A stretch of 55,088 nucleotides of DNA from Promethearchaeota archaeon (GCA_016839585.1 JAEOTZ010000061.1:1-55088), one strand, 5' to 3'; shown: positions 1-43,795, counted from the first letter of the stretch. The notes: generated by a model not told the origin, from the letters alone. Translations and numbers: made by a program.

Positions 1-58
1 GTTCACCACATTCTTCACAAGTCAAATCGGATTTGGTCTCAGAGAGATCTTTAATCAT
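1..58 (-). CDS. 5' end of a zinc-ribbon protein, possibly a TFIIB/TFB-like N-terminus (runs off the window)
   Basis: Reverse strand reads ATG at 58: MIKDLSETKSDLTCEECGE..., with a CxxCG knuckle about 14 aa from the start. Confidence 0.4.
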   Translation of the reverse strand, partial: MIKDLSETKSDLTCEECGE

Positions 59-224
59 TTTATTCCTATTGTAGAAGTTAATTTATTGTTACCTTCTCAT
101 TATTTTTGTTATTTATAAATAAAAAAAGAATTAATACTTACAAAAAAGTCCAATATTTCTCTTTTTTATTTAAATATGCTGAAAAGATAGGTGATTAAAT
201 AAAAGATAATCGTAAAATAGGAAA

Positions 225-3200
225 ATGGTCAGCATGAAAAAGAATAAAAATATTGTATTGGTATTAATAATTGTAGTCTGTCAAATTATCTTCACGTATC
301 CAATTAATAATATTAAATATAGAATAGATTCAGTCTATGATCACCAATATTATGATGAGAGAGTAGAATCTAGAACCAAAGATCAACTAAAAACTTCAAC
401 CTGTAGAAATATGGACAATATTGAAGCCATTTTTGACAGAAAACTTAACGATTATGAATTGTATGGCTATTTTCCTCAGATTTACGAACCTTCGTTGCAG
501 GCTACCTATTATGGGCTGTATATTCTAGCTGCTCTTGATATGGTAGGAGAAATAAATAAAACAACAATAACAAATTATATAATCTCTACTTATGATCAAG
601 AATCTAATTTATTTTTCGATGATTATTCTTATCGATACTTGGACATGGATTTCTCGCAAGCTTATTATCCTTTGACATCTCTCCTTGAAGTCAATTGTTA
701 TACTATTTTATCCTTAAATATCTTAAATAAACTGGACTTAATCGACAGACAAAACTTTATCGATTTCATCTGGAGTTGTTATAATCCCGACACAAGTGGA
801 TTTATCGGCCAACCATATAGTGTGGATTTACATGAATCTTTTAAAATTTCTACAATGGACAATACATATTTTGCAGTTATGGCATTAAATTTGCTATTGG
901 ATGATTGGATTAGTTATACAGTGCGAAAAAATGAGATAATTCAATATATAAATGACTTACAAGATTCAATAAATACTGATTGGAGATATGGAGGATTTTA
1001 TAATGATAAGGATAGTTCATTTAATAGTATTAAACCACTTCATGAACCCAACCTTCTTTCGTCATATTACTGTATCAAAACATTAGAAATCTTTGGAATG
1101 GAAGAGTCGATTAACATTAATAACTTTCATCAATTTCTCAATGAGTTATATATTGATGACCATTATTTTCAAATGTCAATTTCTGAACATAACACAACCA
1201 ATATTATCGCAAGTGCAATTGGGTTAGAACTTTCTAAAATGACGGGATTTTCAGGTATAAATGAAACTTCGGTGATCCATTTCATTCTAAATAATAGAAA
1301 TTCTCAAGGTGCCTGGGATTCCGCTACAACAGTTAAAATGCATGAGTTAATGGATCTTTTCCAAATTATTCGAGCCTTAAACAACAGTGGTGCAACTTCT
1401 AACCTTAATTCACTAGATAAATCTGAAATTTTAACGGCACTTAATAACTATCATCAACTTAAAGGATTTTCCCTTATCTCTCAAGAATATACATCCCTTA
1501 ATCTATTTAATACTATTATCTCTTCATTTCAATTATTCGATAGGATTTCAGATTTAAATATACGAGACATATATAATGAAATAAAGGATTGTTTCAGATA
1601 TTTTGCTTATCCTGAAGATTGGTATGTTTTTGTACCTCTTATAAATTTAGATCCAATGCAGTCTGAGTTTCGCTCATATCCCCTTGAATATAATAATAGA
1701 GGATATCATAATTACATTACAAGAATTGACTATTTTACATCATATAAATCCATGTATTTTGCCTTAAATTCAATGAATAATTTATTTAAATTGGATGATT
1801 TTGGAGAAGAGGTTGATTTAACTAATTTAATTGACGATATCATACAATCCCAATTTTTAAATGACTCTATTCCTGAAGCTTACGGGGCTTTTTTACCTAT
1901 GCGTGGATATACCTTTTTTTCTCTTGAAAGTCAATTACACAAAATCTTTTTTGAATATTCATATTATGCTATAAAATCATTAGAGTTGCTTGCAGATCAT
2001 TTAAATTTTGAAAGTTTAATTGATTTACCTTTCAATAAAGCAGCGCTATATGAGTATATTGAAAGAAATATCGTTGAAACCTCCTCGGTACTCTACTTTA
2101 ATCCTCAATACACCTATGATATCGAAATAATCTTACGAAATACTTATTTCGTGATTTATGTTTTAAAGGCACTTGATCTTTATGATCTAAATAATCAAAA
2201 AATCAAAGAATTTGTGCTCCAAAACATAAATTACAATAACATAAACAACATCTATTATTCATACAAAATCTCAGAAATCTTGGATGTTAGTCTTGAATTC
2301 AATTATGATTTAGTAATAAATCTAGCTGAAATGCTTTATTCGGGAGATTTAAATGAGTTTTACTTGAGTTCGAATCTTCAAATGGTTAGCCAAGAGATTT
2401 TTCTCTGGATTTGCGAAATGGCTCTAAACAGTGATTTAGAAATTGTATGTGAATATATAGAACAAATAATTTTAGGGGGAGTTAATAGTCTTACCATATC
2501 ATTTCAAAATTTGATTATTGATGATTTTGGGGATGATATTTCGGTTGTTTTTGAAAGCTTGCAGCTTGGGATAATAGATCTTGAGAAGCAAGTTGACAAT
2601 ACTTATTATAAAGATTTTAAAATACCTGAAAATCCAAGTTATTATCCAAAAGTAGAAGGTGTTGTGGCGATCTATAAAGACTTTGAGCAATTAGGGCAAA
2701 TTCCAATTAATATTAGGACATTTTATGTGTTTCATGATTCTGGCTTGAAAATAATCGACAAACGTCAAGAACTCATCTTTGAGATGAACATCTCTTACGA
2801 ATTTTCATCAGGACAAAATCCAGCATCCAATTCAATGATAATGGGGAATATTTATAGAAATTTTTTAATGGTAGAATCTATTGAACTTGAGAGAGAGGAT
2901 TATTCAGATTTATCTAAATTTACTATGTATTATGAAAATCGGGAAAATATTGAGTATTCTATTCGATTTTTAATTTATGATGGATTTCATCCTGATGGGA
3001 TGATTTTATATGAATATGAAATAAATCCCTCAGAACCCATTAACCCTGGTGGAGGGCAATCTCCAATATCCTCAATTCTCTGGTCAATTATATCTTTATT
3101 TATCTTTTTAGGTATCTGTGGAGTTTCTTTATATGTTTCGTTTAAATTTACAAAATGGATTTTTCGAAAAAGGCGCAGAAAGAAGAAAGAGTCCACCCCT

Positions 3201-3281
3201 TTAAAGTTAGAATTAGAAATAAAGAACGGTAAAAAAATGAAAGATGTATTCGATGATATATTGAGTAATGAAGATGTATAA
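225..3281 (+). CDS. Secreted, C-terminally anchored protein with prenyltransferase/squalene-oxidase-type alpha-alpha toroid repeats
   Basis: 1018 aa. N-terminal hydrophobic signal. Repeated units such as FIWSCYNPDTSGFIGQP..STMDNTYFAVMALNLL and YINDLQD...GGF...SYYCIKTLEIF. C-terminal TM helix followed by RKRRRKKK. Confidence 0.7.
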   Translation: MVSMKKNKNIVLVLIIVVCQIIFTYPINNIKYRIDSVYDHQYYDERVESRTKDQLKTSTCRNMDNIEAIFDRKLNDYELYGYFPQIYEPSLQATYYGLYILAALDMVGEINKTTITNYIISTYDQESNLFFDDYSYRYLDMDFSQAYYPLTSLLEVNCYTILSLNILNKLDLIDRQNFIDFIWSCYNPDTSGFIGQPYSVDLHESFKISTMDNTYFAVMALNLLLDDWISYTVRKNEIIQYINDLQDSINTDWRYGGFYNDKDSSFNSIKPLHEPNLLSSYYCIKTLEIFGMEESININNFHQFLNELYIDDHYFQMSISEHNTTNIIASAIGLELSKMTGFSGINETSVIHFILNNRNSQGAWDSATTVKMHELMDLFQIIRALNNSGATSNLNSLDKSEILTALNNYHQLKGFSLISQEYTSLNLFNTIISSFQLFDRISDLNIRDIYNEIKDCFRYFAYPEDWYVFVPLINLDPMQSEFRSYPLEYNNRGYHNYITRIDYFTSYKSMYFALNSMNNLFKLDDFGEEVDLTNLIDDIIQSQFLNDSIPEAYGAFLPMRGYTFFSLESQLHKIFFEYSYYAIKSLELLADHLNFESLIDLPFNKAALYEYIERNIVETSSVLYFNPQYTYDIEIILRNTYFVIYVLKALDLYDLNNQKIKEFVLQNINYNNINNIYYSYKISEILDVSLEFNYDLVINLAEMLYSGDLNEFYLSSNLQMVSQEIFLWICEMALNSDLEIVCEYIEQIILGGVNSLTISFQNLIIDDFGDDISVVFESLQLGIIDLEKQVDNTYYKDFKIPENPSYYPKVEGVVAIYKDFEQLGQIPINIRTFYVFHDSGLKIIDKRQELIFEMNISYEFSSGQNPASNSMIMGNIYRNFLMVESIELEREDYSDLSKFTMYYENRENIEYSIRFLIYDGFHPDGMILYEYEINPSEPINPGGGQSPISSILWSIISLFIFLGICGVSLYVSFKFTKWIFRKRRRKKKESTPLKLELEIKNGKKMKDVFDDILSNEDV

Positions 3282-3319
3282 TTTATTGGGAAAAAATAAA
3301 AAAAGAAGCGTGAAAAAGA

Positions 3320-3949
3320 ATGCTAAAAATTGACAATTTTGACCGAATTGAGCACTTTTCTGAAGAAGAGGGCTTTAGACAGTTAGATTTACTATATAAG
3401 ATATATAAATTAGATAATCAAAGAGAAATATTAATCAAAAGGTTACATAAATTACAAAAAACTATAAAAAATAATCCCAATGAGAATTTTTCAATAAAAC
3501 TTAAAGCATTAAAAACAGTTTCTGATGAGATTGTCCAAAATAAGAAGATTATCCTATCTAAAATAAAGGATTCATATAACTTTTTTGAATTATCAAATCA
3601 AATTAATAAATTGAAGCAATATGTTTTAGAATTAAATAAAGCTATAAAAAGAAAAGAAATTGATGCTAATACTCATCGAATTACAAAAGATTATTATCAG
3701 AACCAACTTAAGCTCCAATTTGATAATTTAGTTAAATTAAAGAGGATTGCAAAAGAATATATAATTATCCTAAAGAATCAGGAACTTCAATCAAGAGCAG
3801 AAGAAAGATTTATGAACTCAAATGTTCCCAAGAAAATACCTCATATACTCAATAATAAAAGTGTTAAAATTAATACTATATCAACTCGAAATGAATTAAA
3901 AGAAATTACGGATTTTTTGACCAAGCAAATTTTAAAGAGTAGTCTCTAA
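3320..3949 (+). CDS. Hypothetical coiled-coil protein
   Basis: 209-aa K/E/L-rich helical ORF directly downstream of the 1018-aa gene. Confidence 0.6.
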   Translation: MLKIDNFDRIEHFSEEEGFRQLDLLYKIYKLDNQREILIKRLHKLQKTIKNNPNENFSIKLKALKTVSDEIVQNKKIILSKIKDSYNFFELSNQINKLKQYVLELNKAIKRKEIDANTHRITKDYYQNQLKLQFDNLVKLKRIAKEYIIILKNQELQSRAEERFMNSNVPKKIPHILNNKSVKINTISTRNELKEITDFLTKQILKSSL

Positions 3950-4245
3950 GATAGAATCAATATGGTTTCATTATTTCCATAGTTATAATTGGTTGTGTTT
4001 GGTTCTCTCATGAGTACTATAATACTTGTAGGTAAAGTGATTTCAGCAACAATTAACGCAATAATAAGCCGATATTTTTGAAAATTTTCCCGACTCATAA
4101 ATAATAATGAATATAAAGACTTGCCTACACTTGGTATTAAGGTTTTGTTGGCAGGAGTCTCCATCATATTCAATAAATATAATGATGGTTAAATTATTAT
4201 AGAAAAAAGGGTTATTATAATCTGATTGTAAAAAGGAGAAATCAA

Positions 4246-14969: not shown

Positions 14970-15242
14970 TATGTTACTTTAATGCAAGGAGTTGAAAAAT
15001 CTGCTAAATTGTCTAAAGAGATAAGAATGCATGTAAGACAAGAGATTGGTCCCGTTTTCCAGCCAGATGTGATTCAGTTCGCTGATGATTTGCCAAAGAC
15101 GCGAAGTGGCAAAATAATGCGTAGAATATTAAAAGCTATAGCTTCTGGAACAGAAATCGGAAACGTTACAACGTTAGCAGATCCTTCTGTTGTTGATAAG
15201 CTACTTGAAGAACGTAAAAAAATGGATATCGAAATAGGTTAA
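14970..15242 (+). pseudogene. acs: Orphan 3' end (about 90 aa) of acetyl-CoA synthetase
   Basis: [45 protein letters not shown] is the ACS C-terminal signature. The remaining roughly 550 codons are absent from the window. Confidence 0.9.
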
Positions 15243-15611
15243 TTTAAATTTCTTATATTTTTTTATTTTAAAAAGACCTTCATTTTGCCTTTTAACTGAT
15301 TTATATCTATATTGTAATATTCTGGTAGAATTGAACAATTTAATTTAAATTTCTGATTTTGTAATTTCAGATTTTCATTGTTAATTAGAATTATATCAAA
15401 AGAAAAAAGTTCCATTAAATATAATTCTACTCTGATTGGAGCAATCACTTTTGTGAATTTTTTGGAATTAATTATATTGTTTAAAATCACTATTTTTTAA
15501 ACCGTTATATAATTCTTATTCTGCAAATTAGATAAAAATAATAAGAATAATAATATATGATTATTAGAGAAGATTTTAATTCCATATTCATAACTGAAGA
15601 GAGTAAGGATT

Positions 15612-34301: not shown

Positions 34302-34721
34302 TATAAATCATCTCCTTCAAATATATAATATTTTTGATATATTATCATAAATCATCGATTTACAATGAGAACAATAGTAAAGGATTGTAAATAAAATTTT
34401 TGATTTAAAATGAAAATTAGCAACAATAAAGAGCGTGTTTTAATAATTCTTTTAGATTTATCGGTATAAGTTGATTTAACTAAATTATAATTTTAATTTA
34501 AACTATAAGAAGCTAATTAGAAAAACTTATTTTTGATTTATATTTAAAATTCATAAATCTTAAAGTAGAGGATTCTCAAATTCTCAAAAAATTTGAAAGA
34601 CCACATTTTTTTTTAAAAAATAGTTATCTAACAAAAACAGATTTACATAATAATCTTCTTATTTAAATCTTTACAAATTTGAAATCTCGCAATCTTATTG
34701 TGTTTATTACATTGTATTTAC

Positions 34722-34911
34722 ATGAATAGGTATAGTACAACTGCATAGTATGTCGAAGGGGCTTATAATGTGGGTTGAGAGAGCAATATATTTAATTATA
34801 TTAACTTAACTCTTAAATCCAACTCAATGTCCCAAAACCACGGCAAATACACACTGGAGGTGAATATGCTTCTTTTTTAAGATGACGTACTATGCATTGT
34901 ACTCTATTCAT
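34722..34911 (+). ncRNA. Candidate structured RNA of about 190 nt closed by a 28-bp bulged stem
   Basis: ATGAATAG/CTATTCAT, AGTACAA/TTGTACT, TGCATAGTATGTC/GACGTACTATGCA, then G.U-rich GAAGGGGC/GCTTCTTT and inner hairpins. Confidence 0.45.
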
Positions 34912-35246
34912 AAATCTTCGGTTTTATTCTCTTTAGTATTCTGAAGAGTCTTAGAGATTTAAGTATAGTTTAAAAAGATTCATTTGGATAGTCTTATAGA
35001 AACATGGATTGATCCAATAAATTTACGTTTAACCTTGATATATTAAATGCATATGCCTAAAATATCAAGAACTTCTAGATTTCACCAATAAACTTAAACA
35101 CTCATTCAATTTTTAACCTAATCAGTAATATGAAAAGAATAGGGAAATATGTTTGAAACATACTTTTACCCTAAAAAGCCGTGGTAACTTAAAGAAATTA
35201 AAAAAATACCAAAAGACAAAAGAGATTAATAACCAAGGTTAAAGGT

Positions 35247-35813
35247 ATGATTGTATGGAGAAAAAGGAGTAGGCAAGTGGAAGAGTTAGGGAAAGTGGAT
35301 TTTAAAGGAGAAAGAATAATTATATTCATTGATCATGCAAATATTTTCCATCCATGTCAAGAATTAGGTGTTCGTATTGATTATAGAAAATTTAAAGAAT
35401 TAATGACACAAAAGAGTTATTTAGTTGGAGCTTTCATGTATTTGGGGATGCCTGATAAAATCTCAGCAAAGAAAGAAAAATTTTTGAAATATTTAACCGA
35501 GACGGCGGGATATACTATTCAGACACGACCTTTAAAGGTATTACCTCTAGGAACAACAAAGCAAAGGGGAATTGATATTTTTATTTATAAAGATATCGTA
35601 GAGCTAGCAGAAGAAGATGCGTATGATAAAGCTGTATTAGTATCTGGAGATGCTGATTTTGTGGATGCTGTGAGAAAATTGAAGGCATTGAAGAAAAGAT
35701 TTGTAATTTGGAGTTTTCGAAAATCTCTCTCCAAATTATTAAGAAAGGAAGCGGGAGAGGAAAATATAAGGTACATCGATAATATCTTGAAAGACATTAG
35801 TCGACAAGAATAA
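35247..35813 (+). CDS. NYN/LabA (DUF88) PIN-like ribonuclease
   Basis: IFIDHANI, KQRGID, AVLVSGDADF and YID. Confidence 0.9.
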   Translation: MIVWRKRSRQVEELGKVDFKGERIIIFIDHANIFHPCQELGVRIDYRKFKELMTQKSYLVGAFMYLGMPDKISAKKEKFLKYLTETAGYTIQTRPLKVLPLGTTKQRGIDIFIYKDIVELAEEDAYDKAVLVSGDADFVDAVRKLKALKKRFVIWSFRKSLSKLLRKEAGEENIRYIDNILKDISRQE

Positions 35814-36195
35814 TTTATATGGTTTCTTTAATAAGATATACGTTAATCACAGTATTATATATACTTTATTTTATTGCACCTATTCCAATATTAGTGCTTG
35901 TATAAAAAAAAAGAAGATCTAATTCAGTTAATACTAACAGTTGCTATATATGTAATAGGTCTTATTGCAAAAATCTGGTAAAAAAGATCTTTTATACATT
36001 TTATTCAAGAAGTTCCTAGTGATATAGCATAGCAACCTTTTATAAAATAATGCTCATCTATAATATTTTCTAATAAAAATCTATATATGGATTGAATGTT
36101 CATAAATCTTATAAAATTAAAATTTTCAAACTCTATTGGAGTTTAAATAGTTATATCATATAGATATAGTATAAATCAAACAAAATCGAAATTAT

Positions 36196-36437
36196 GGTGT
36201 TTTGGGGATATGCTCTTTTTTCTTATAGAACAATTTTTTTGTTGTGGCAAGCAATAAGGTGTTCTTAAAGAATATCCCCTCTCACCTGCCTAACTTATTA
36301 TTATAATTATTATCAAAATTTTGACAGTTCACGCCTTCTCCTCTTAAGTCTCAAATATTGTTGTAGTTTAAAAAGGTAATTTGAAACTAAAGTGATGTAG
36401 TTAAATTATAGCTACAATTGCCACAACAAAGAATTGT
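36196..36437 (+). ncRNA. Candidate structured leader/ncRNA ahead of the AEP operon
   Basis: Roughly 20-bp inverted repeat 36230-36250 / 36418-36437; crossing stem GGGGATAT/ATATCCCC; internal hairpins; TATA-like box at about 36170. Confidence 0.45.
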
Positions 36438-36443
36438 ATTAAT

Positions 36444-37145
36444 ATGAATATAACCAAAGTTATTTATACACCAGAAAGAGTTATCAAGATTTGCGTAAGC
36501 AAGACAGATAAAGACGAACAACAACAGATTGTTCCTGATCTTGTCCAGCACGCAGTTATATTTTACACCATAGGTTTAATAGATAAGCCTGAAACTTTAA
36601 TAGAAGAGGCTTATAGAATAAGTAAAAAAAAAGTTAAAATATATAAGAATATAATTGTCCTCTCTTTTAGCTTAGATGAGCTTAATCAAGTTGAGAATTG
36701 TGAAATTACCATTAACTCACTTGTCATTTTTTTGAGTTCTAGAAAGAAATTTGAGACTGAATTTGGAAGAACATTTCAATTTGAAGAGATTTACACTACT
36801 AAGGATCTTTTAGAAATTAAGGCTCCTGAAGTTCAGAGTAATAAAAAGCAAAAACAAAAACAGATTGAACCTACAAAAAAGACAGTTCAAGTTGATAAGC
36901 AATTTAAAGATTCCTATGAAAAATTTAAAGTTGAGATTGAAGACAGTAGTATAGGGGATATAATTAGAAATAAATCAAAACCCTTTGATCATGCTTTAAA
37001 AGAATTTGGAATATCGCTTCTTTGTAGGGTATTGATGGCCGTTTCACATCTTAATGTTCTTTTAAAAAATGATTTTAAAAGTGATCTTAACTCGTTTCTA
37101 AGATTGAATGTGCTCAACTTACATAAAGAGGTGCGCGAAGCATGA
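36444..37145 (+). CDS. Hypothetical protein, first gene of the AEP operon
   Basis: 233 aa with an ATGA overlap with the next gene. Confidence 0.7.
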   Translation: MNITKVIYTPERVIKICVSKTDKDEQQQIVPDLVQHAVIFYTIGLIDKPETLIEEAYRISKKKVKIYKNIIVLSFSLDELNQVENCEITINSLVIFLSSRKKFETEFGRTFQFEEIYTTKDLLEIKAPEVQSNKKQKQKQIEPTKKTVQVDKQFKDSYEKFKVEIEDSSIGDIIRNKSKPFDHALKEFGISLLCRVLMAVSHLNVLLKNDFKSDLNSFLRLNVLNLHKEVREA

Positions 37146-39466
37146 GTGATTTCTTTTCTAAAAAGATTTTATATATTTTAGAAAATTTACAGGTAAAAAG
37201 TTTCAATATTCACAAAAAAATTGATGAGCTAAGACACCTTCTTCAGGATGATAATTTCTCTTTATGGAATGCAATTAATAGGATTGCTGTATCCATGAAG
37301 ATAATCAGTCCTGATTTTAATATGATTCAACAATATGTTGATTTAGGTAAGATTAAAAGTCATGAATATTTGGCAGTTTATAAACAAATATCTGAAATCT
37401 TTAAAAATGCTATTTCTACACTTACAAATAACTTGGAATTCACTAAGAACTATTACTTTCCATTTAAAGATACTATTTTGATTAAAAGGACAGAAGAGTT
37501 CATTCCCTACAATAAAAAGACGTTTAAACGAAAGGATCATATCTTTCTCGAATTCAAGACATCCATATTAAGCTTAAATGATATAACCTCCATTCTAAAA
37601 GTATTGAGCTTAGAACAGCTATGCTATGCTTCTGAAGTTGAGCTAAAGGTAAGTGTTCGATATAGGATAACCAATACCTATATAACTGTGCTGGATGAGA
37701 AACTTGAAAAAACGTTCATTACAGAGTTTAAAAACTTTCTCTCCTTATCTGATAAAGATATTTTACGTAATCTTCTCGATCATCCTGAGTATTTTAAAGT
37801 AATTAAAATGTATATGTTCCCAAGTGGCTCATTATCGAAAGTAGAGGTGACCTTAGATATTCTTCAAGAGCACCAACCTTGTAAAAAACGTAGAATAGTC
37901 TCTGTGAATGGCTCTAAAATGAAGTTCCATGAGATTATAACACGCCACACTCCACATACTAAATTTAAAGAGATCATTACCACGAATGATATTGCAGGGA
38001 TCTATTGTTCTGTTAAAAGTGTAAATGATGATATTTTATATTGGTTAATCGATATTGACGTGCCTTCCATATTTTATAGCCTTTTCCCCGCTCATGAGGT
38101 ATGGAATCTAACAATAAATATCGCAAGAGCTATAATAAAATCTGCTAATAAATTTAACCTCCCCCCTTTCAAAATCTCGTACAGCGGCAGTAAAGGACTG
38201 CATATGTTGTATGCGGTAAACTCTGAGGCATTAGATGATAGTGAAAATCTAGTAAATATTCCGGAATTAGCTTATCAACAATTGCCTGGTACTCAAACTT
38301 TAAAGAAAGATAGTAAAAGCACAATTCGGGATAAATTTAAATTTTCAAAATCCTTGCTTCAGAGTTTACTGTTATATACCATCTATAAAGGAGAAATTGA
38401 AATTCCCCTTATCATCAGGAAAAAGTTTCGAATCTATCATCCTTATCAATTATTCAAAATATCGGTGTTTGATGAGAAAAATCTTTTTTCTATACTGCTC
38501 GATACTTCAAGTATGGGAAGAGGAGTATTTCGAATCTTTAGCCCCCATCCTACAACAAAACGAGTTTCAATCCCTATTTATGACATGAGAACACGACAAT
38601 TTCATGAACCCTTTCTTGAATATGATATATTAATAGAAGAAGCGAAAGTCGAGAATGTTATAGAGAAATTCAAGAATAATGATACAAGGTTGTTTCTACA
38701 AAAACCTAATGTTATTACACGAAACCATATAGGATCCCTCTTACATCCTCATGCTCTTTTTCCGAGCTTTGCTACTCTATTACGATTTGGTAATGTAGAA
38801 TCCATTCAGAGATCTCCTCAAAGCTTCGAATTTTGGCACCGATTTTTCGAATTAAGGAGTTTTTACCATTACATTAGACATCTTACCTTCATTTATGATA
38901 AGAATAATACAAATGTCGCAGGATTTTTGAATTATATTAAACATCTGGCGACAAGGCTAAATATTCAGAATAAAGAACGAGTGGTAACTTTATTAAAACT
39001 TTATTTTATAAAAAAGGTAATTAGCTTTCCGATTCTAAAAGAGAAGTTAGAGACGCTTTACAATATCGATTTCTTTTTTCGATTAAAATCTAATGTCTTT
39101 ATTGAACAAAATGAGGACGATTTAACAATATTATTTCAAAATGAGACGGAATTTACATATTTCCTAAATCAAGCAAAAAATCTCTTTTCCATTGTGTTAG
39201 ATACGATTTCACATCAAATTTTCCAAAAAAGATCCCTGAAATTATCTAAAAAACAGGTAATAGCGTTTGAAAAATTATCGAGAGATATATCAAATCTAAC
39301 AGAATTAGTTCACTATTATTTACGAGAACTAAATTACAAGTCAAAATTAATCCGAAAGGAAGAGAGGTTGATAAAAATCATTCATTTTGTCAGTAAATTG
39401 TATTTTATATTGACATCGTTTCTTAGGGAATTCTTTCCATCAAGCAAAACTCAGGAGGTGGTATAA
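37142..39466 (+). CDS. Large archaeo-eukaryotic primase (AEP/PriS-like primase-polymerase) with long N- and C-terminal extensions
   Basis: Motif I LIDIDV, motif II SYSGSKGLH, motif III LLDTS, then RIFSPHPTTKRVSIPI (PriS-type RxxxSxHxxT..PI). Confidence 0.8.
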   Translation: MSDFFSKKILYILENLQVKSFNIHKKIDELRHLLQDDNFSLWNAINRIAVSMKIISPDFNMIQQYVDLGKIKSHEYLAVYKQISEIFKNAISTLTNNLEFTKNYYFPFKDTILIKRTEEFIPYNKKTFKRKDHIFLEFKTSILSLNDITSILKVLSLEQLCYASEVELKVSVRYRITNTYITVLDEKLEKTFITEFKNFLSLSDKDILRNLLDHPEYFKVIKMYMFPSGSLSKVEVTLDILQEHQPCKKRRIVSVNGSKMKFHEIITRHTPHTKFKEIITTNDIAGIYCSVKSVNDDILYWLIDIDVPSIFYSLFPAHEVWNLTINIARAIIKSANKFNLPPFKISYSGSKGLHMLYAVNSEALDDSENLVNIPELAYQQLPGTQTLKKDSKSTIRDKFKFSKSLLQSLLLYTIYKGEIEIPLIIRKKFRIYHPYQLFKISVFDEKNLFSILLDTSSMGRGVFRIFSPHPTTKRVSIPIYDMRTRQFHEPFLEYDILIEEAKVENVIEKFKNNDTRLFLQKPNVITRNHIGSLLHPHALFPSFATLLRFGNVESIQRSPQSFEFWHRFFELRSFYHYIRHLTFIYDKNNTNVAGFLNYIKHLATRLNIQNKERVVTLLKLYFIKKVISFPILKEKLETLYNIDFFFRLKSNVFIEQNEDDLTILFQNETEFTYFLNQAKNLFSIVLDTISHQIFQKRSLKLSKKQVIAFEKLSRDISNLTELVHYYLRELNYKSKLIRKEERLIKIIHFVSKLYFILTSFLREFFPSSKTQEVV

Positions 39467-39467
39467 G

Positions 39468-40142
39468 ATGGATATTGATGAATTAAAATATTATACAGTT
39501 GCTTCTCAACTATTTGACACTTTTAATAGCGAAGAGATAATTGAGGATTTAGAAAATTTGGTAGGAGAGTCTCCTATATATTTTATAAAAGAAAAAATCA
39601 GGCGAAAAACTTCTAAAGTTCATATTCCACTTCCTGAAAATCTTAAGGCAGCAATTATTGATTTTGAAGGACAACCAGTATTCTTGGTAGGGATCATGAT
39701 CGTTGATAAAATATTAACATTTTATATTAAGAATTATACCCACATTGAACGATTGTATTTCCTCATTTTAAAGGTAATGAGAGTTCTAAGGGAAATACAA
39801 TTATTTGCCTTTAGTACATTTGAAAAGCGAGAGCTTCTAAAGATTTATCACTATTTAGAAACACAGGGATATGATCTCTCTGATTATTCTTTCATTGAAG
39901 GGTTATCCATTGTGAATTTGCAAGAAAACAAGTATGAAGCGTTGAATGAGGCAATCTATACCATCTATCCAGCAGACAGCCCTGTAATTAGCACAGGAGA
40001 TATGCTATTTCGAAATCTTAAGCTAATTCCTAAATTATTTTCGGCTCAAAAGTTTGAGGAAATTATTTCTCATAATCAGAATTGTTTAATGAACGGAAGT
40101 TTGATATTTTTAAAAAGATGGTTAAAACATTATAAAATATGA
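39468..40142 (+). CDS. DEDD/RNase H-fold 3'-5' exonuclease-like protein (YprB/RNase_H_2-like, divergent)
   Basis: Exo I IIDFEG, Exo II-like FAFSTFE, Exo III-like HNQNC. SD GGAGGTGG lies 6 nt before the ATG. Confidence 0.55.
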   Translation: MDIDELKYYTVASQLFDTFNSEEIIEDLENLVGESPIYFIKEKIRRKTSKVHIPLPENLKAAIIDFEGQPVFLVGIMIVDKILTFYIKNYTHIERLYFLILKVMRVLREIQLFAFSTFEKRELLKIYHYLETQGYDLSDYSFIEGLSIVNLQENKYEALNEAIYTIYPADSPVISTGDMLFRNLKLIPKLFSAQKFEEIISHNQNCLMNGSLIFLKRWLKHYKI

Positions 40143-40195
40143 GATAGAAATGGAAGAGATTAAGAAAAGAAATAAAAATTTGGTGATATCTTAAA

Positions 40196-40459
40196 ATGTC
40201 GAAACCAGAGAAAAAATATACAAGTGTCCAAATACCTAGAAATTTAATTTATGAAATCCAAAATCAAATTACAGAATTTTGGTATCGTTCTCACCATGAA
40301 TTTATAATTGAATGTGTCAGGATTGGTCTTAGGAAATTAATTAAAACTAAATATTTATTGAAAAAAGTTACTAAAGAAAAAAATAATGAAAATGACCAGT
40401 ATAAATCAAATAATGAGTTGATTAATGAAATTGATGAAGCAACTAGAAGAGGTGTATGA
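40196..40459 (+). CDS. Ribbon-helix-helix DNA-binding protein
   Basis: YTSVQIP..L...I.......YRSHHEFIIECVR. Confidence 0.7.
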   Translation: MSKPEKKYTSVQIPRNLIYEIQNQITEFWYRSHHEFIIECVRIGLRKLIKTKYLLKKVTKEKNNENDQYKSNNELINEIDEATRRGV

Positions 40460-40736
40460 TCTCATTAAAATAAACCCTATACTATACGGATATAGTATGA
40501 AAGTTTATATATTTTGTTTAAAATTATTATTTGTTATAAGAAATGAAAATTTAAAATTATACAGCAAAGGAGTTATAATCTCAATATTAGTATTAAAAAT
40601 TAGGAGTAGAAATAGAGAAATACAACACAAAATTATGTGTAGTAATGTGAGAAATCCTATAGAAGATACAGAATTTGAAACTTCGGAAATGTTCAATAGC
40701 TTAGCTTTATCTAAACCTGAGAAATTAAAATTATAA
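40425..40736 (+). CDS. Hypothetical protein
   Basis: 103-aa ORF overlapping the RHH gene within the same-strand cluster. Confidence 0.4.
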   Translation: MKLMKQLEEVYDLIKINPILYGYSMKVYIFCLKLLFVIRNENLKLYSKGVIISILVLKIRSRNREIQHKIMCSNVRNPIEDTEFETSEMFNSLALSKPEKLKL

Positions 40737-40772
40737 AATTTAAAACTAAATTATTAAGAGTAAGTAAAGAAA

Positions 40773-41387
40773 ATGGTACGTATTGTTTGTGAAATGAAAA
40801 CAATTAAAAAGCTTGAGTCAACTAGTTCCAGCTTAAACATAAAAGCAACAAGCGTGCCAGATATTATTGAAAAATTATGTGATAAAGCGTTAGAGCTAAA
40901 CAAAATTATCAAGAATATAACTCAAATATTTAAAAAATCCACTCTCAATGATCTTTTCAAGCAGCTTTACTATTTGGAAAAAAAAGCAACAAAGAAGGAG
41001 AAGGTTATGTTTTTCATATTTAAAGAAATGTATAATAACCGTACAGTTTTTCTTAAATCAATTATAAAGCGATTATCTTGGATAAAACCATGCACCACCC
41101 AAGAGGCACAAAATATTATAAGAAAGTTAGAAAGACAGGAATTAATTTCAATAATTAGAAAATGTCCGAAATGCTATACATCTTTAAATTTTCTACCTGA
41201 TGCATGTGAAAATTGCGGTCATATATTTATTTTACAAAAAATTTCGTTTGTGGATAACCGTTTAAGACCAAGGTACGCTATTGAAATAACCAATAAAGGT
41301 GTAGAATTCCTAAAAGAACTAATTGAAGCCTATTATTATCTTAATTCTTTTTTCTACGCTTGGAATAAATATGTTAATTTAAGATGA
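40773..41387 (+). CDS. Winged-helix protein with a zinc ribbon inserted in the wing
   Basis: AQNIIRKLERQELIS, CPKC..CENCG and YAIEITNKGVEFL (MarR/PadR-like wing end). Confidence 0.65.
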   Translation: MVRIVCEMKTIKKLESTSSSLNIKATSVPDIIEKLCDKALELNKIIKNITQIFKKSTLNDLFKQLYYLEKKATKKEKVMFFIFKEMYNNRTVFLKSIIKRLSWIKPCTTQEAQNIIRKLERQELISIIRKCPKCYTSLNFLPDACENCGHIFILQKISFVDNRLRPRYAIEITNKGVEFLKELIEAYYYLNSFFYAWNKYVNLR

Positions 41388-41503: not shown

Positions 41504-43795
41504 TCAACCATAAAATTTTAAAGATCTTACTTTTCTCAAACTACTGAATTTTTTTCTTTTGACATACACAAATATCATTAATCCAACTAAACCAGTTGTT
41601 ATTATAAAGGGGAGTATATGTGATATCCATTCAAAGATATTTTTTCCATCTGTAGTTCTGTTTGATGGTACATGAGGAATAAGTATGTTAATTTCAAGAC
41701 ATCCTGTGGTGTAATTCCCAAATTCGTTGTATCCAACAACAATTAAGTAATACGTACCATTTCCCCATCCAATAATAGAATATCGATAATAAGGCCATTC
41801 GAATGGTGGTGTGAAATTGTAAAAAGATTTAACACTACTATTAAATGAGGTTATTGTATAATTTGAAATAAAGATAGTATAATTCAGAGCATACTCAGAT
41901 CTTGTCCAGATGATATCGAAGGTCCCATCATCGTCAATCGGTATATTTGCATCTGAAAATAATAAAAATGGATCAGGAGCTCGTCTCACATTCACTTGGA
42001 TGCAATTTGACATTGTATCCCCTACTTCGTTGTGAGCTACTATAACATAATAGTAATTGCCATTAGTTATATTTCCAATTAAAAGGAAGGTATCTGTTAT
42101 GTTACTTGCGACTAATGTACCTTGTGTTTTAAAATCATATATAATATCATCATGGATATAAACAGAATAATTATCAGCTCCTTCTGAAGTGGACCATGTG
42201 AGGTTTACAATTCCATCAGTATCAGGTATTTGTGTGTGATTATTTAAAAGAAAATCATCAGGGGGATATTGAACAATGGCTTTTAAACAGTTTGAGCTGG
42301 TATTTCCATATGCATTGAATGCAACAACTAAGAAGTAATACGTTCCTTGTTTTAAATTTGTTAAACTATATGTACGATTAGTATTTCCTATAACTATTTC
42401 AGTTACAATTTCATCAATTGTAGTTATTGTTTCATTTGATTGATATAATGTATAATTATCTGCATCTAATGATTTTGTCCAAGATAAAGTAACATTTCCA
42501 TCAGGATCAGGAAAATTATCAAAAGAGTTCAATTCAAAATTATCAGGTATAGGTAAATATTTTAATAAAAATAGATTATAGCTACTTCCCGAATTATCTG
42601 CTTTTCCAGTTATGAAAATATTATCATAAGAATCTATAGTAATATCATAGGCTATATCATCAAGCTCATTACCCCATATTTTATACCATACATAGTCGCC
42701 GCTGCTATTAAATTTTACAAGGCATACATCCTTATCTATACCATCATAACTTTTGGTATAGCCCGTAATATATATATTTTCTTTTGAATCTAAGTCAATG
42801 GAATACCCATAATCATACTCAGGACCACCCCAATTTGTATTCCATAAAAGATCGCCAGAATTATTAAATTTAAACAAAACGATATCATTTCCTCCAGCAC
42901 CATAATTTTGTGTATTTCCCACCACAAGAATATTATCAGAAGAATCAATTATTAGAGAATATCCATTATCAGGAAGATCGCTACCCCAAGTTGCATTCCA
43001 TTGTAAATCACCATTGGTGTCAAATTTAGCTATAAAAAAATCACTTGTAATTGCCCCAAAACTGCTAGTATATCCAGTAATATAGATATTTCCAAATGAA
43101 TCAAGGTCAATATCATAAGCTAAATCAGTATCTATGCCCCCCCATGTTGTATTCATTTTTAAATCTCCAGTACTATTATACTTCAGTAAGATTACATCTC
43201 CAAATGTTCCGAAAGATTCAGTATAACCAACAACATAAATATTATCATAATCATTAACAGATATTCCATATCCCGTATCATACTGAGCTCCACCCCAAGT
43301 TCTATTCCAAAGAAGCTCGCCAGAGCTTGAATATTTTAATAAAATAATGTCAGAGCTTCCATTTGTAAGACTATATGAACCTCCTATAATATAGAGATTA
43401 TTTGAAGAATCAATATCAATCGCAAAGCCTAAATCGTCTGAACTTCCACCCCATGTCTCATTCCATATTTGATTTCCTGAATTGTTATATTTTACGATTA
43501 TTATATCAAAAGCATTCTTAGAAGAATTATATACTTTACCAACGATATAAACATTATAATAATTATCAATTACAATATCTTTTCCTTCACTTTCTCCCAT
43601 CATATTTATTGTATTGTTCCAATCTAAGTTTATGGCTGTAAAAGGATTCCTTATTTGTTTATTTGAATCTCTTTTATCGTAAAATAGTTCTCTCGAAAAT
43701 TTTATATTGAAACTTAAAATTATGGTACTAAAAATCAAAATTAAAATAATACAACCAAATTTTAAATTTTTTAATTTTTTATATTTTATTAACAT
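41504..43795 (-). CDS. Surface protein: SBBP-type beta-propeller, 3 FN3-like domains and a C-terminal TM anchor
   Basis: Seven repeats of W..TWGG...D.G..I.ID...NIY..G.T. Three PD.DG...L.W..S..A.NY...G.YY..VVA.N..G units. Confidence 0.85.
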   Translation of the reverse strand: MLIKYKKLKNLKFGCIILILIFSTIILSFNIKFSRELFYDKRDSNKQIRNPFTAINLDWNNTINMMGESEGKDIVIDNYYNVYIVGKVYNSSKNAFDIIIVKYNNSGNQIWNETWGGSSDDLGFAIDIDSSNNLYIIGGSYSLTNGSSDIILLKYSSSGELLWNRTWGGAQYDTGYGISVNDYDNIYVVGYTESFGTFGDVILLKYNSTGDLKMNTTWGGIDTDLAYDIDLDSFGNIYITGYTSSFGAITSDFFIAKFDTNGDLQWNATWGSDLPDNGYSLIIDSSDNILVVGNTQNYGAGGNDIVLFKFNNSGDLLWNTNWGGPEYDYGYSIDLDSKENIYITGYTKSYDGIDKDVCLVKFNSSGDYVWYKIWGNELDDIAYDITIDSYDNIFITGKADNSGSSYNLFLLKYLPIPDNFELNSFDNFPDPDGNVTLSWTKSLDADNYTLYQSNETITTIDEIVTEIVIGNTNRTYSLTNLKQGTYYFLVVAFNAYGNTSSNCLKAIVQYPPDDFLLNNHTQIPDTDGIVNLTWSTSEGADNYSVYIHDDIIYDFKTQGTLVASNITDTFLLIGNITNGNYYYVIVAHNEVGDTMSNCIQVNVRRAPDPFLLFSDANIPIDDDGTFDIIWTRSEYALNYTIFISNYTITSFNSSVKSFYNFTPPFEWPYYRYSIIGWGNGTYYLIVVGYNEFGNYTTGCLEINILIPHVPSNRTTDGKNIFEWISHILPFIITTGLVGLMIFVYVKRKKFSSLRKVRSLKFYG

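Follow-up and report, generated by a model that had tools for sequence, protein, structure and literature searches.

What is a primase-polymerase gene doing in an archaeal chromosome with a predicted exonuclease gene, and no helicase, beside it? The question is raised by positions 36196-41387 of the DNA analyzed here, a stretch of 55,088 nucleotides from a Promethearchaeota archaeon (GCA_016839585.1, JAEOTZ010000061.1:1-55088; hereafter the window) with a G+C content of ~28%. This segment carries an operon on the + strand (36444-40459), also referred to below as the cassette. It encodes g233 (36444-37145, 233 aa), a 774-aa protein of the archaeo-eukaryotic primase (AEP) type (37142-39466), g224 (39468-40142, 224 aa) and a small ribbon-helix-helix (RHH)-like protein. 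The gene layout indicates translational coupling: the AEP gene shares an ATGA overlap with g233, and g224 follows after a gap of 1 nt, just as the original prediction, made by a model from the sequence, had described this compact cluster. Searches of Pfam, NCBIfam, PHROGs and PADLOC detected no helicase, PriL, Cas, reverse transcriptase or integrase domain in the cluster proteins, again as predicted, and g233, AEP and g224 matched no family in these libraries. The AEP is a polymerase of an unannotated family, distinct from the housekeeping primase, and the cassette is a real, dispensable, accessory gene set of Lokiarchaeia that is not part of chromosomal replication.

The AEP motifs are all in place: IDID at residues 303-306, SGSKGLH at 348-354, D454 and RIFSPHP at 464-470. 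D304, D306, G352, H354, D454, R464, S467 and H469 are invariant or nearly invariant among 34 aligned AEP homologues. They correspond to motifs I (DxD), II (sxH) and III (hD) and the R..S.H block that follows, leaving the catalytic residues intact across the set. An AlphaFold model of the protein (predicted local distance difference test, pLDDT, 90; predicted template modeling score, pTM, 0.90) has an N-terminal domain (~38-180), a catalytic core (~200-540) and a helical C-terminal domain (~560-770). When compared with solved structures by VIA-align, the core came closest to the LigD PolDom (Z 19.2, root-mean-square deviation 3.4 Å over 255 residues), Prim-PolC (Z 19.0) and the Methanocella non-homologous end joining (NHEJ) polymerase (Z 18.8). 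Eukaryotic and archaeal PriS gave Z 12-14 and the CRISPR-associated primase-polymerase, CAPP, Z 11.3, and phage and plasmid primase-polymerases were more distant at Z 7-8 (RepB' Z 7, S-2L PrimPol Z 8.3). Foldseek agreed, matching the model to NHEJ polymerases and PriS (E 7e-6), and the closest ESM Atlas clusters were LigD_Prim-Pol (template modeling score 0.82 over 267 residues); the viral structures of BFVD yielded weak primase matches only. The AEP fold ascribed to this protein is thus borne out by three structural searches. At the sequence level the protein matched no Pfam family at E up to 1, hence not the LigD_Prim-Pol model (PF21686), and no PDB sequence at E up to 10. As parts of the full-length model, the N-terminal (~38-180) and C-terminal (~560-770) domains had no convincing fold match.

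Could this protein be the primase of the cell? A canonical PriS is encoded on a separate contig (C20; PF01896, 66 bits) of the genome, which is 99% complete and has a single copy of the AEP gene; PF01896 matches the protein on C20 and not the AEP. In the close relative G183, which has 96.5% nucleotide identity to the left flank, the AEP gene is a dead fragment of ~150-200 codons with six stops. Because a separate PriS exists and a close relative retains only a dead fragment, the AEP is not the cell's primase, which agrees with its original placement outside the housekeeping enzymes. Relatives are few. An exhaustive phmmer search of 1.84 billion representative sequences returned 67, ~25 of them full length, and a distant group of ~560-580 aa matches residues 277-570 only. 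All public homologues are labeled hypothetical, one has a precomputed PF01896 match, and a few are labeled Odin- or Thorarchaeota. A literature search found no paper describing this family; a recent study of Asgard primases covers PriS and PriL only (PMC12770985). The distant clade, of ~560 aa, is represented by L043-L047 (from G309, G354, G326, G341 and G317), which come from other Asgard families, match residues 274-570 only and have no exonuclease neighbor. What emerges, in the archaea most closely related to eukaryotes, is a new AEP family that has two extra domains lacking a known fold match and, as an obligate partner, a DEDD exonuclease.

The partner, g224, had been described as an RNase H-fold exonuclease-like gene, and its model (pLDDT 87.5) has the fold of a DEDD (DnaQ-like) 3'-5' exonuclease. 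The best solved match is MrfB (Z 12.8), the exonuclease domains of family-B polymerases follow at Z 10-12, and all of the 50 best matches are DEDD exonucleases. Foldseek by itself was weak, and no PDB sequence matched. The 17 homologues have an invariant D65 and a nearly invariant E67, both on strand 1. E119, at the Exo II place, does not vary either, nor do H202 and N203, which open the last helix; N150, Q152, E157, R182 and C206 are likewise invariant. Exonuclease activity is likely, judging from the model, but not certain because there is no Asp at the usual Exo III spacing after H202; the invariant E157 might substitute for it. If g224 is active, the AEP and its dedicated 3'-5' exonuclease would combine polymerization and editing in a compact pair that belongs to none of the usual families. 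Such a pair would bear on how replication and repair enzymes evolved and might also prove useful as a tool.

The two genes stay together. All related loci come from Promethearchaeota metagenome-assembled genomes, and the AEP-g224 pair is present in 14 of the 14 main-clade loci for which downstream DNA is at hand, in keeping with the proposal that polymerase and exonuclease form one module. g233 was found in nine loci and the RHH-like gene, g87, in eight, and the order g233-AEP-g224-(g87) recurs with genes overlapping or abutting. Within the phylum an AEP match is found in 22 of 400 genomes, and within the genus in 10 of 53. Four of the 22 (G183, G186, G205 and G197) have an AEP with in-frame stops or a short fragment only, and two genomes (G191 and G250) have a second, truncated AEP copy. 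One of these copies, at L048 (G191:C28), is a 5'-truncated second cassette with the C-terminal half of the AEP, g224 and a homologue of g204, abutting a 2018-aa open reading frame (ORF) on the other strand. AEP proteins within the genus are only 43-47% identical. The copy in G078, a genome from another family, nests within the genus clade, which could reflect transfer or mis-binning.

The site of the cassette also differs among close relatives. Neither G183 nor G209 has the operon here, a presence/absence polymorphism. Synteny with both stops at window position 34447, and both go on with an S6e / radical-SAM / Fae-Hps block that is found on other contigs in the source genome. In G209 the right flank begins at window position 41544, on another contig, and abuts DNA homologous to window 14991-15265. 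Because synteny ends at 34447 and the G209 flank resumes at 41544, the segment 34448-41543, from an upstream NYN-domain nuclease gene through g204, is variable and rearrangement-prone. As a separate observation, the G209 counterparts of window 14991-15265 and 41544 are 35 nt apart, and the segment 14991-22299 has the opposite orientation to that in the window. This arrangement suggests that the region was inverted or otherwise rearranged and that the cassette's right edge was one of the breakpoints.

The structural neighbors of the AEP suggest one answer to the opening question, a stand-alone DNA repair module in which the exonuclease would resect or clean 3' ends, the AEP would fill them and a host ligase would seal, in the manner of LigD PolDom with its 3'-processing nuclease or of Prim-PolC. 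The nearest solved structures are all repair AEPs of the AEP-proper clade (Z 18-19, deviation ~3 Å over 237-260 residues) with the same catalytic motifs, including SGxKGxH, and the nearest ESM Atlas clusters are of LigD type. LigD carries a 3'-processing domain beside its polymerase domain, to which a 3'-5' exonuclease partner would be a parallel, and NHEJ-type genes are, like the cassette, patchy in prokaryotes. However, the 99%-complete genome has no Ku, neither Ku nor a ligase is among the conserved neighbors, the PF21686 model does not match, and a DEDD exonuclease takes the place of a phosphoesterase as partner. The AEP has ~200 extra N-terminal and ~230 extra C-terminal residues compared with these polymerases. 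Such extra domains, accompanying RHH and ParB-like genes, the apparently tight translational control described below and the low identity within the genus would all be unusual for a repair gene. A repair role is considered unlikely.

What lies upstream of the operon? A structured leader of roughly 240 nt had been proposed. Taken whole, the leader (36196-36443) folds only marginally better than shuffles (z -1.78), and no Rfam family reached its gathering score; with a loose threshold the only match was at chance level. What stands of the proposal is an internal hairpin that is conserved and covarying in seven loci. In the window the hairpin element spans 36191-36290 on the + strand, and in it TTCTTAA immediately precedes the 3' arm of the core hairpin (36204-36279, z -3.1 versus shuffles) and a C/T-rich tail is present. 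The hairpins of the seven loci are 71-78 nt long, lie 100-170 nt before the g233 start and have z values of -2.4 to -6.3; TTCTTRA is invariant just 5' of the 3' arm in each and is followed by the C/T-rich tail. Although the sequences of the basal stems differ, 54 of 56 cells are paired, versus 26-37 of 56 when the partner is slid. A descriptor scan recovered the exact hairpin position in five of the six other loci, with two other matches in ~660 kb, and in the window's own genome it was at noise level (37 matches versus 44 in a reversed control). Covariance model R1, derived from the orphan copies described below, was too narrow and found no hairpin in the other AEP loci even with filters off, and RNAalifold derived no consensus from the hairpins as aligned by MAFFT. 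Covariation was therefore counted by an anchored script, with hairpin limits set from the fold of the individual sequence. The divergent cassette of L040, which lacks g233 and the TTCTTRA motif, nevertheless has an upstream hairpin of ~17 bp (L040:11200-11290, - strand) and the same CGTAGTTTAAATA box.

The apical part of the hairpin has a second partner. In the window a 16-nt segment, X (36235-36250, + strand), is complementary to X' (36418-36433, + strand) in the 5' untranslated region (UTR), ending 10 nt before the g233 ATG. In seven of seven loci the apical 10-20 nt of the hairpin are complementary to a stretch that stops 3-10 nt short of the first start codon. The sequences differ from locus to locus, and cognate X:X' pairs average 14.3 nt versus a mean of 8.7 and a maximum of 11 for non-cognate pairs. 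Folds in which X:X' pairing is enforced lie 0-10 kcal/mol from the minimum-free-energy fold and are the minimum in two of the seven loci; in these calculations the local hairpin and the long-range pairing are competing folds close in energy. The covarying pairing is strong comparative evidence for a regulatory RNA interaction able to cover the ribosome-binding region. Because the partner is the ribosome-binding region of the first gene, it points to translational control rather than a template role. Two putative promoters accompany the hairpin. P1, a promoter-like box TTTAAATA (36121-36153, + strand), lies before it, is conserved in all orphan hairpin copies and is 73% identical to the box at 36346-36378 (repeat D1). 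The latter, P2, is a putative operon promoter with a B recognition element (BRE)/TATA-like box CGTAGTTTAAAWA (36346-36378, + strand) ~75 nt before the start codon. The P2 box is a conserved block in the alignment of seven upstream regions and is also present in L040, L039 and L092. With its covarying pairing, its distinct specificity types and its orphan copies, the hairpin is a candidate archaeal riboregulator, and few comparable cases are known to us in archaea.

The hairpin is not confined to the operon. Scored with R1 (49 bits), that of the window is a diverged member of a ~170-nt unit made of a promoter-like box and a hairpin. In G000, the source genome, there are three orphan copies, each a TATA-like box with a 99-nt hairpin (C67:8340-8438, - strand; C37:83969-84067, + strand; C14:6515-6614, + strand). 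The relatives have further ones, two on C47 and one on C65 in G183 and one on C13 in G209. They lie in unrelated contexts with no downstream partner of their own, and hairpin copies are the only matches in the genome to the upstream non-coding DNA. In four samples there are contigs with another cassette lineage (AEP 74% identical), and every one of these contigs begins inside such a hairpin. Five of six orphan copies tested (from G000 and G183) are complementary over 13 nt to the g233 UTR of that lineage, but the same orphans are not complementary to the window's own UTR. Hairpin and UTR thus appear to form matched specificity types. Orphan hairpins without a cognate cassette may persist either as relics or as trans-acting RNAs.

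Beyond acting as a brake on translation, the hairpin could be a specificity determinant of an AEP-based nucleic-acid system. It might act as a primer or template for RNA-linked DNA synthesis by a polymerase that is not a reverse transcriptase, which would be an AEP-built analogue of a retron. Alternatively, orphan hairpins might act in trans as a small-RNA exclusion system that silences incoming matching cassettes. This proposal is quite unlikely and is given less weight than the repair role.

Other nuclease-type genes are associated with the cassette. A NYN-domain nuclease gene (35247-35813, + strand; Pfam NYN E 8e-24, PADLOC NYN E 4e-13) lies upstream of the operon, and its orthologues (40-57% identity) are found 0.4-8 kb upstream in seven loci. 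The gene is effectively single copy in the source genome and is frameshifted in G183, which has also lost the AEP; it is loosely linked to the cassette. The non-coding DNA before it (34636-34911) is 73% conserved before the decayed NYN gene of G183, on another contig. In seven other loci a ParB_N-like gene (Pfam E 3e-7) is present downstream of the operon (L002:12607-13974, L003:8657-9850, L004:11528-12487, L006:18281-19438, L037:271-1479, L039:11848-12684 and L049:2249-3112). It is absent from the source genome, where g204 stands in its place. ParB-like genes are reported to be typical of Asgard mobile elements (PMC11529989).

A polymerase linked to three nuclease-type genes could also be a conflict system directed against viruses or plasmids. 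A trigger would lift the repression by the hairpin and the AEP would make DNA, possibly primed or templated by the hairpin as in retrons, while the DEDD exonuclease, the NYN RNase and the ParB-like nuclease would process nucleic acids or act as effectors. The patchy spread of the cassette, its pseudogenes, its rapid evolution and its position in a variable region are consistent with this, as are the PADLOC match of the NYN protein and the persistence of orphan hairpins without the cassette. Retrons have their non-coding RNA directly upstream on the same strand. The layout here is similar, in that a small structured element with a promoter-like box directly precedes the polymerase operon on the same strand and accessory nuclease genes are present, a likeness that extends to the defense-associated reverse transcriptases (DRT). 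Unlike in those systems, the cluster has no reverse transcriptase domain and the conserved partner of the hairpin is a ribosome-binding region, a pairing that regulation explains without a template role. CAPP (fold Z 11.3) is another AEP that is not replicative and has an accessory setting, but no Cas1, Cas2 or CRISPR array is present in the cluster here. No core protein of the cassette matches any PADLOC model, and we know of no defense system built on an AEP. A conflict system is possible but doubtful.

The answer tentatively favored is a DNA-synthesis module under its own tight control that came from a plasmid-like or selfish element, or is what domestication has left of one, and that resides in variable chromosome regions. 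The AEP, perhaps with g233 as an accessory subunit, would prime and/or extend DNA, and the g224 exonuclease would trim or proofread the 3' ends. The RHH-like protein would repress transcription. The hairpin RNA would either have a promoter of its own or form the 5' portion of a long leader, and its apical segment would pair with the g233 ribosome-binding region, keeping translation low. The cassette would then be the core that replicates and maintains a small element of plasmid-like or selfish nature. A plasmid-like or selfish origin is proposed because control by an RHH protein plus a complementary RNA, a ParB-like neighbor, and gain, loss and decay of the cassette occur together. If this is true, it would be one of few selfish replicons known for Lokiarchaeia.

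Known replicons offer partial parallels. Plasmids of the pRN1 type, in which a CopG-type RHH protein accompanies a primase-polymerase/helicase, resemble the cassette as small dispensable modules with an AEP polymerase and an RHH regulator. However, the cassette has no fused or adjacent helicase, its AEP belongs to another structural clade, and it is chromosomal with no integrase. In pMV158 the replicase is under dual control by CopG and the antisense RNAII. Like this pair, and like other regulators that occlude the ribosome-binding site of replicase or transposase genes, the cassette would combine an RHH-like protein with a small hairpin RNA whose complement is the ribosome-binding region of g233. 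Here, in contrast, the complementary segment is on the same strand, ~170 nt upstream, and may act in cis within a long leader. The RepB' primase of RSF1010 with its ssi hairpins is likewise an AEP-fold enzyme paired with a specific hairpin, which raises a possible priming site at the DNA level, but the fold match is distant (Z 7), and the hairpin here pairs with an mRNA leader and has promoter-like boxes, which points to an RNA role.

Several results weigh against a replicon origin. First, mobility genes are lacking: in five genomes no tyrosine recombinase is found on the AEP contigs, all matches being on other contigs, and none of the sampled loci has an integrase, transposase, helicase, capsid or other hallmark of mobile elements within ~10 kb. 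No relative was found among IMG/VR viral contigs, and the flanks are not conserved across loci as a larger element. The original suggestion of a defined integrated element is not sustained by these searches. Second, a contig of 11 kb in the source sample bridges the region with its flanks, and the cassette is therefore chromosomal in that sample. Third, the AEP core is nearest to repair polymerases (Z 18-19) and far from those of plasmids and phages (Z 7-8.3). Fourth, the hairpin is on the same strand as its target, unlike the classical counter-transcripts of plasmids. Finally, transcription of the hairpin, both promoters and all enzymatic activities are predictions made from sequence.

Reads and contigs from the region were also considered. 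Many read joints link ~34.2-36.3 kb to ~41.4-44.1 kb, including one from 34407 to 41385 in the source sample. They have short sides, several run backwards and the DNA is AT-rich; they were not counted. A contig of run X7 ceases to match at 34534. Contig depth varies along the region, which hints only weakly at strain polymorphism.

Is the cassette connected with the genes that follow it? Downstream of the cluster are a gene for a beta-propeller/fn3 membrane protein on the - strand and a giant open ORF of the surface-protein kind. The original prediction had speculated that the cassette diversifies or shuffles this giant gene or else serves as the replicon of a large element to which the gene belongs. 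Repeats resembling the giant gene do lie within a few kb of the cassette in the window, L003 and L006, but these are 3 of ~14 loci, and the genome has several paralogues of such surface-protein genes (SBBP-type matches). G209, moreover, has a surface-protein flank without the cassette. The related idea of a template repeat was rejected, as the giant gene and the non-coding DNA upstream of the operon share no similarity. A tie between cassette and giant gene is very improbable.

The remaining proteins of the segment are less well characterized. g233 has a beta-rich N-terminal domain, a basic K/Q-rich low-complexity linker and a conserved helical C-terminal domain; it matched no PDB sequence, as it matched none of the four family libraries, and an ESM Atlas feature search gave nothing usable. 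g87 (40196-40459, + strand, 87 aa) and g204 (40773-41387, + strand, 204 aa) had been taken for two DNA-binding proteins, RHH and winged-helix/Zn-ribbon. The g87 family profile matches the RHH domain of NikR at E 0.026 and g87 matches PHROG 38461 at E 6e-5, with no Pfam match for any member of the family; an RHH protein is plausible, but not proven, from these similarities. In g204 the two CxxC pairs of a Zn-ribbon-like protein are present, and the Pfam matches are weak (DZR E 0.006, TrmB E 0.12). Its only homologue is in L048 (58% identity), and it appears to be lineage-specific cargo. The DNA-binding claim is thus weakly backed for g87, and for g204 the CxxC pairs are what stands of it. Between them, a 103-aa ORF (40425-40736, + strand) overlaps g87; it has no homologue in any other locus and no Pfam match, and is probably not a gene. 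The window contains no tRNAs. At its left end, positions 1-3964 are 89% identical to C75 5620-9585 of G000, and the last 83 nt of C75 are identical, in reverse, to the right end of the window, which suggests a duplicated or strain-variant region plus an assembly link inside the giant gene.

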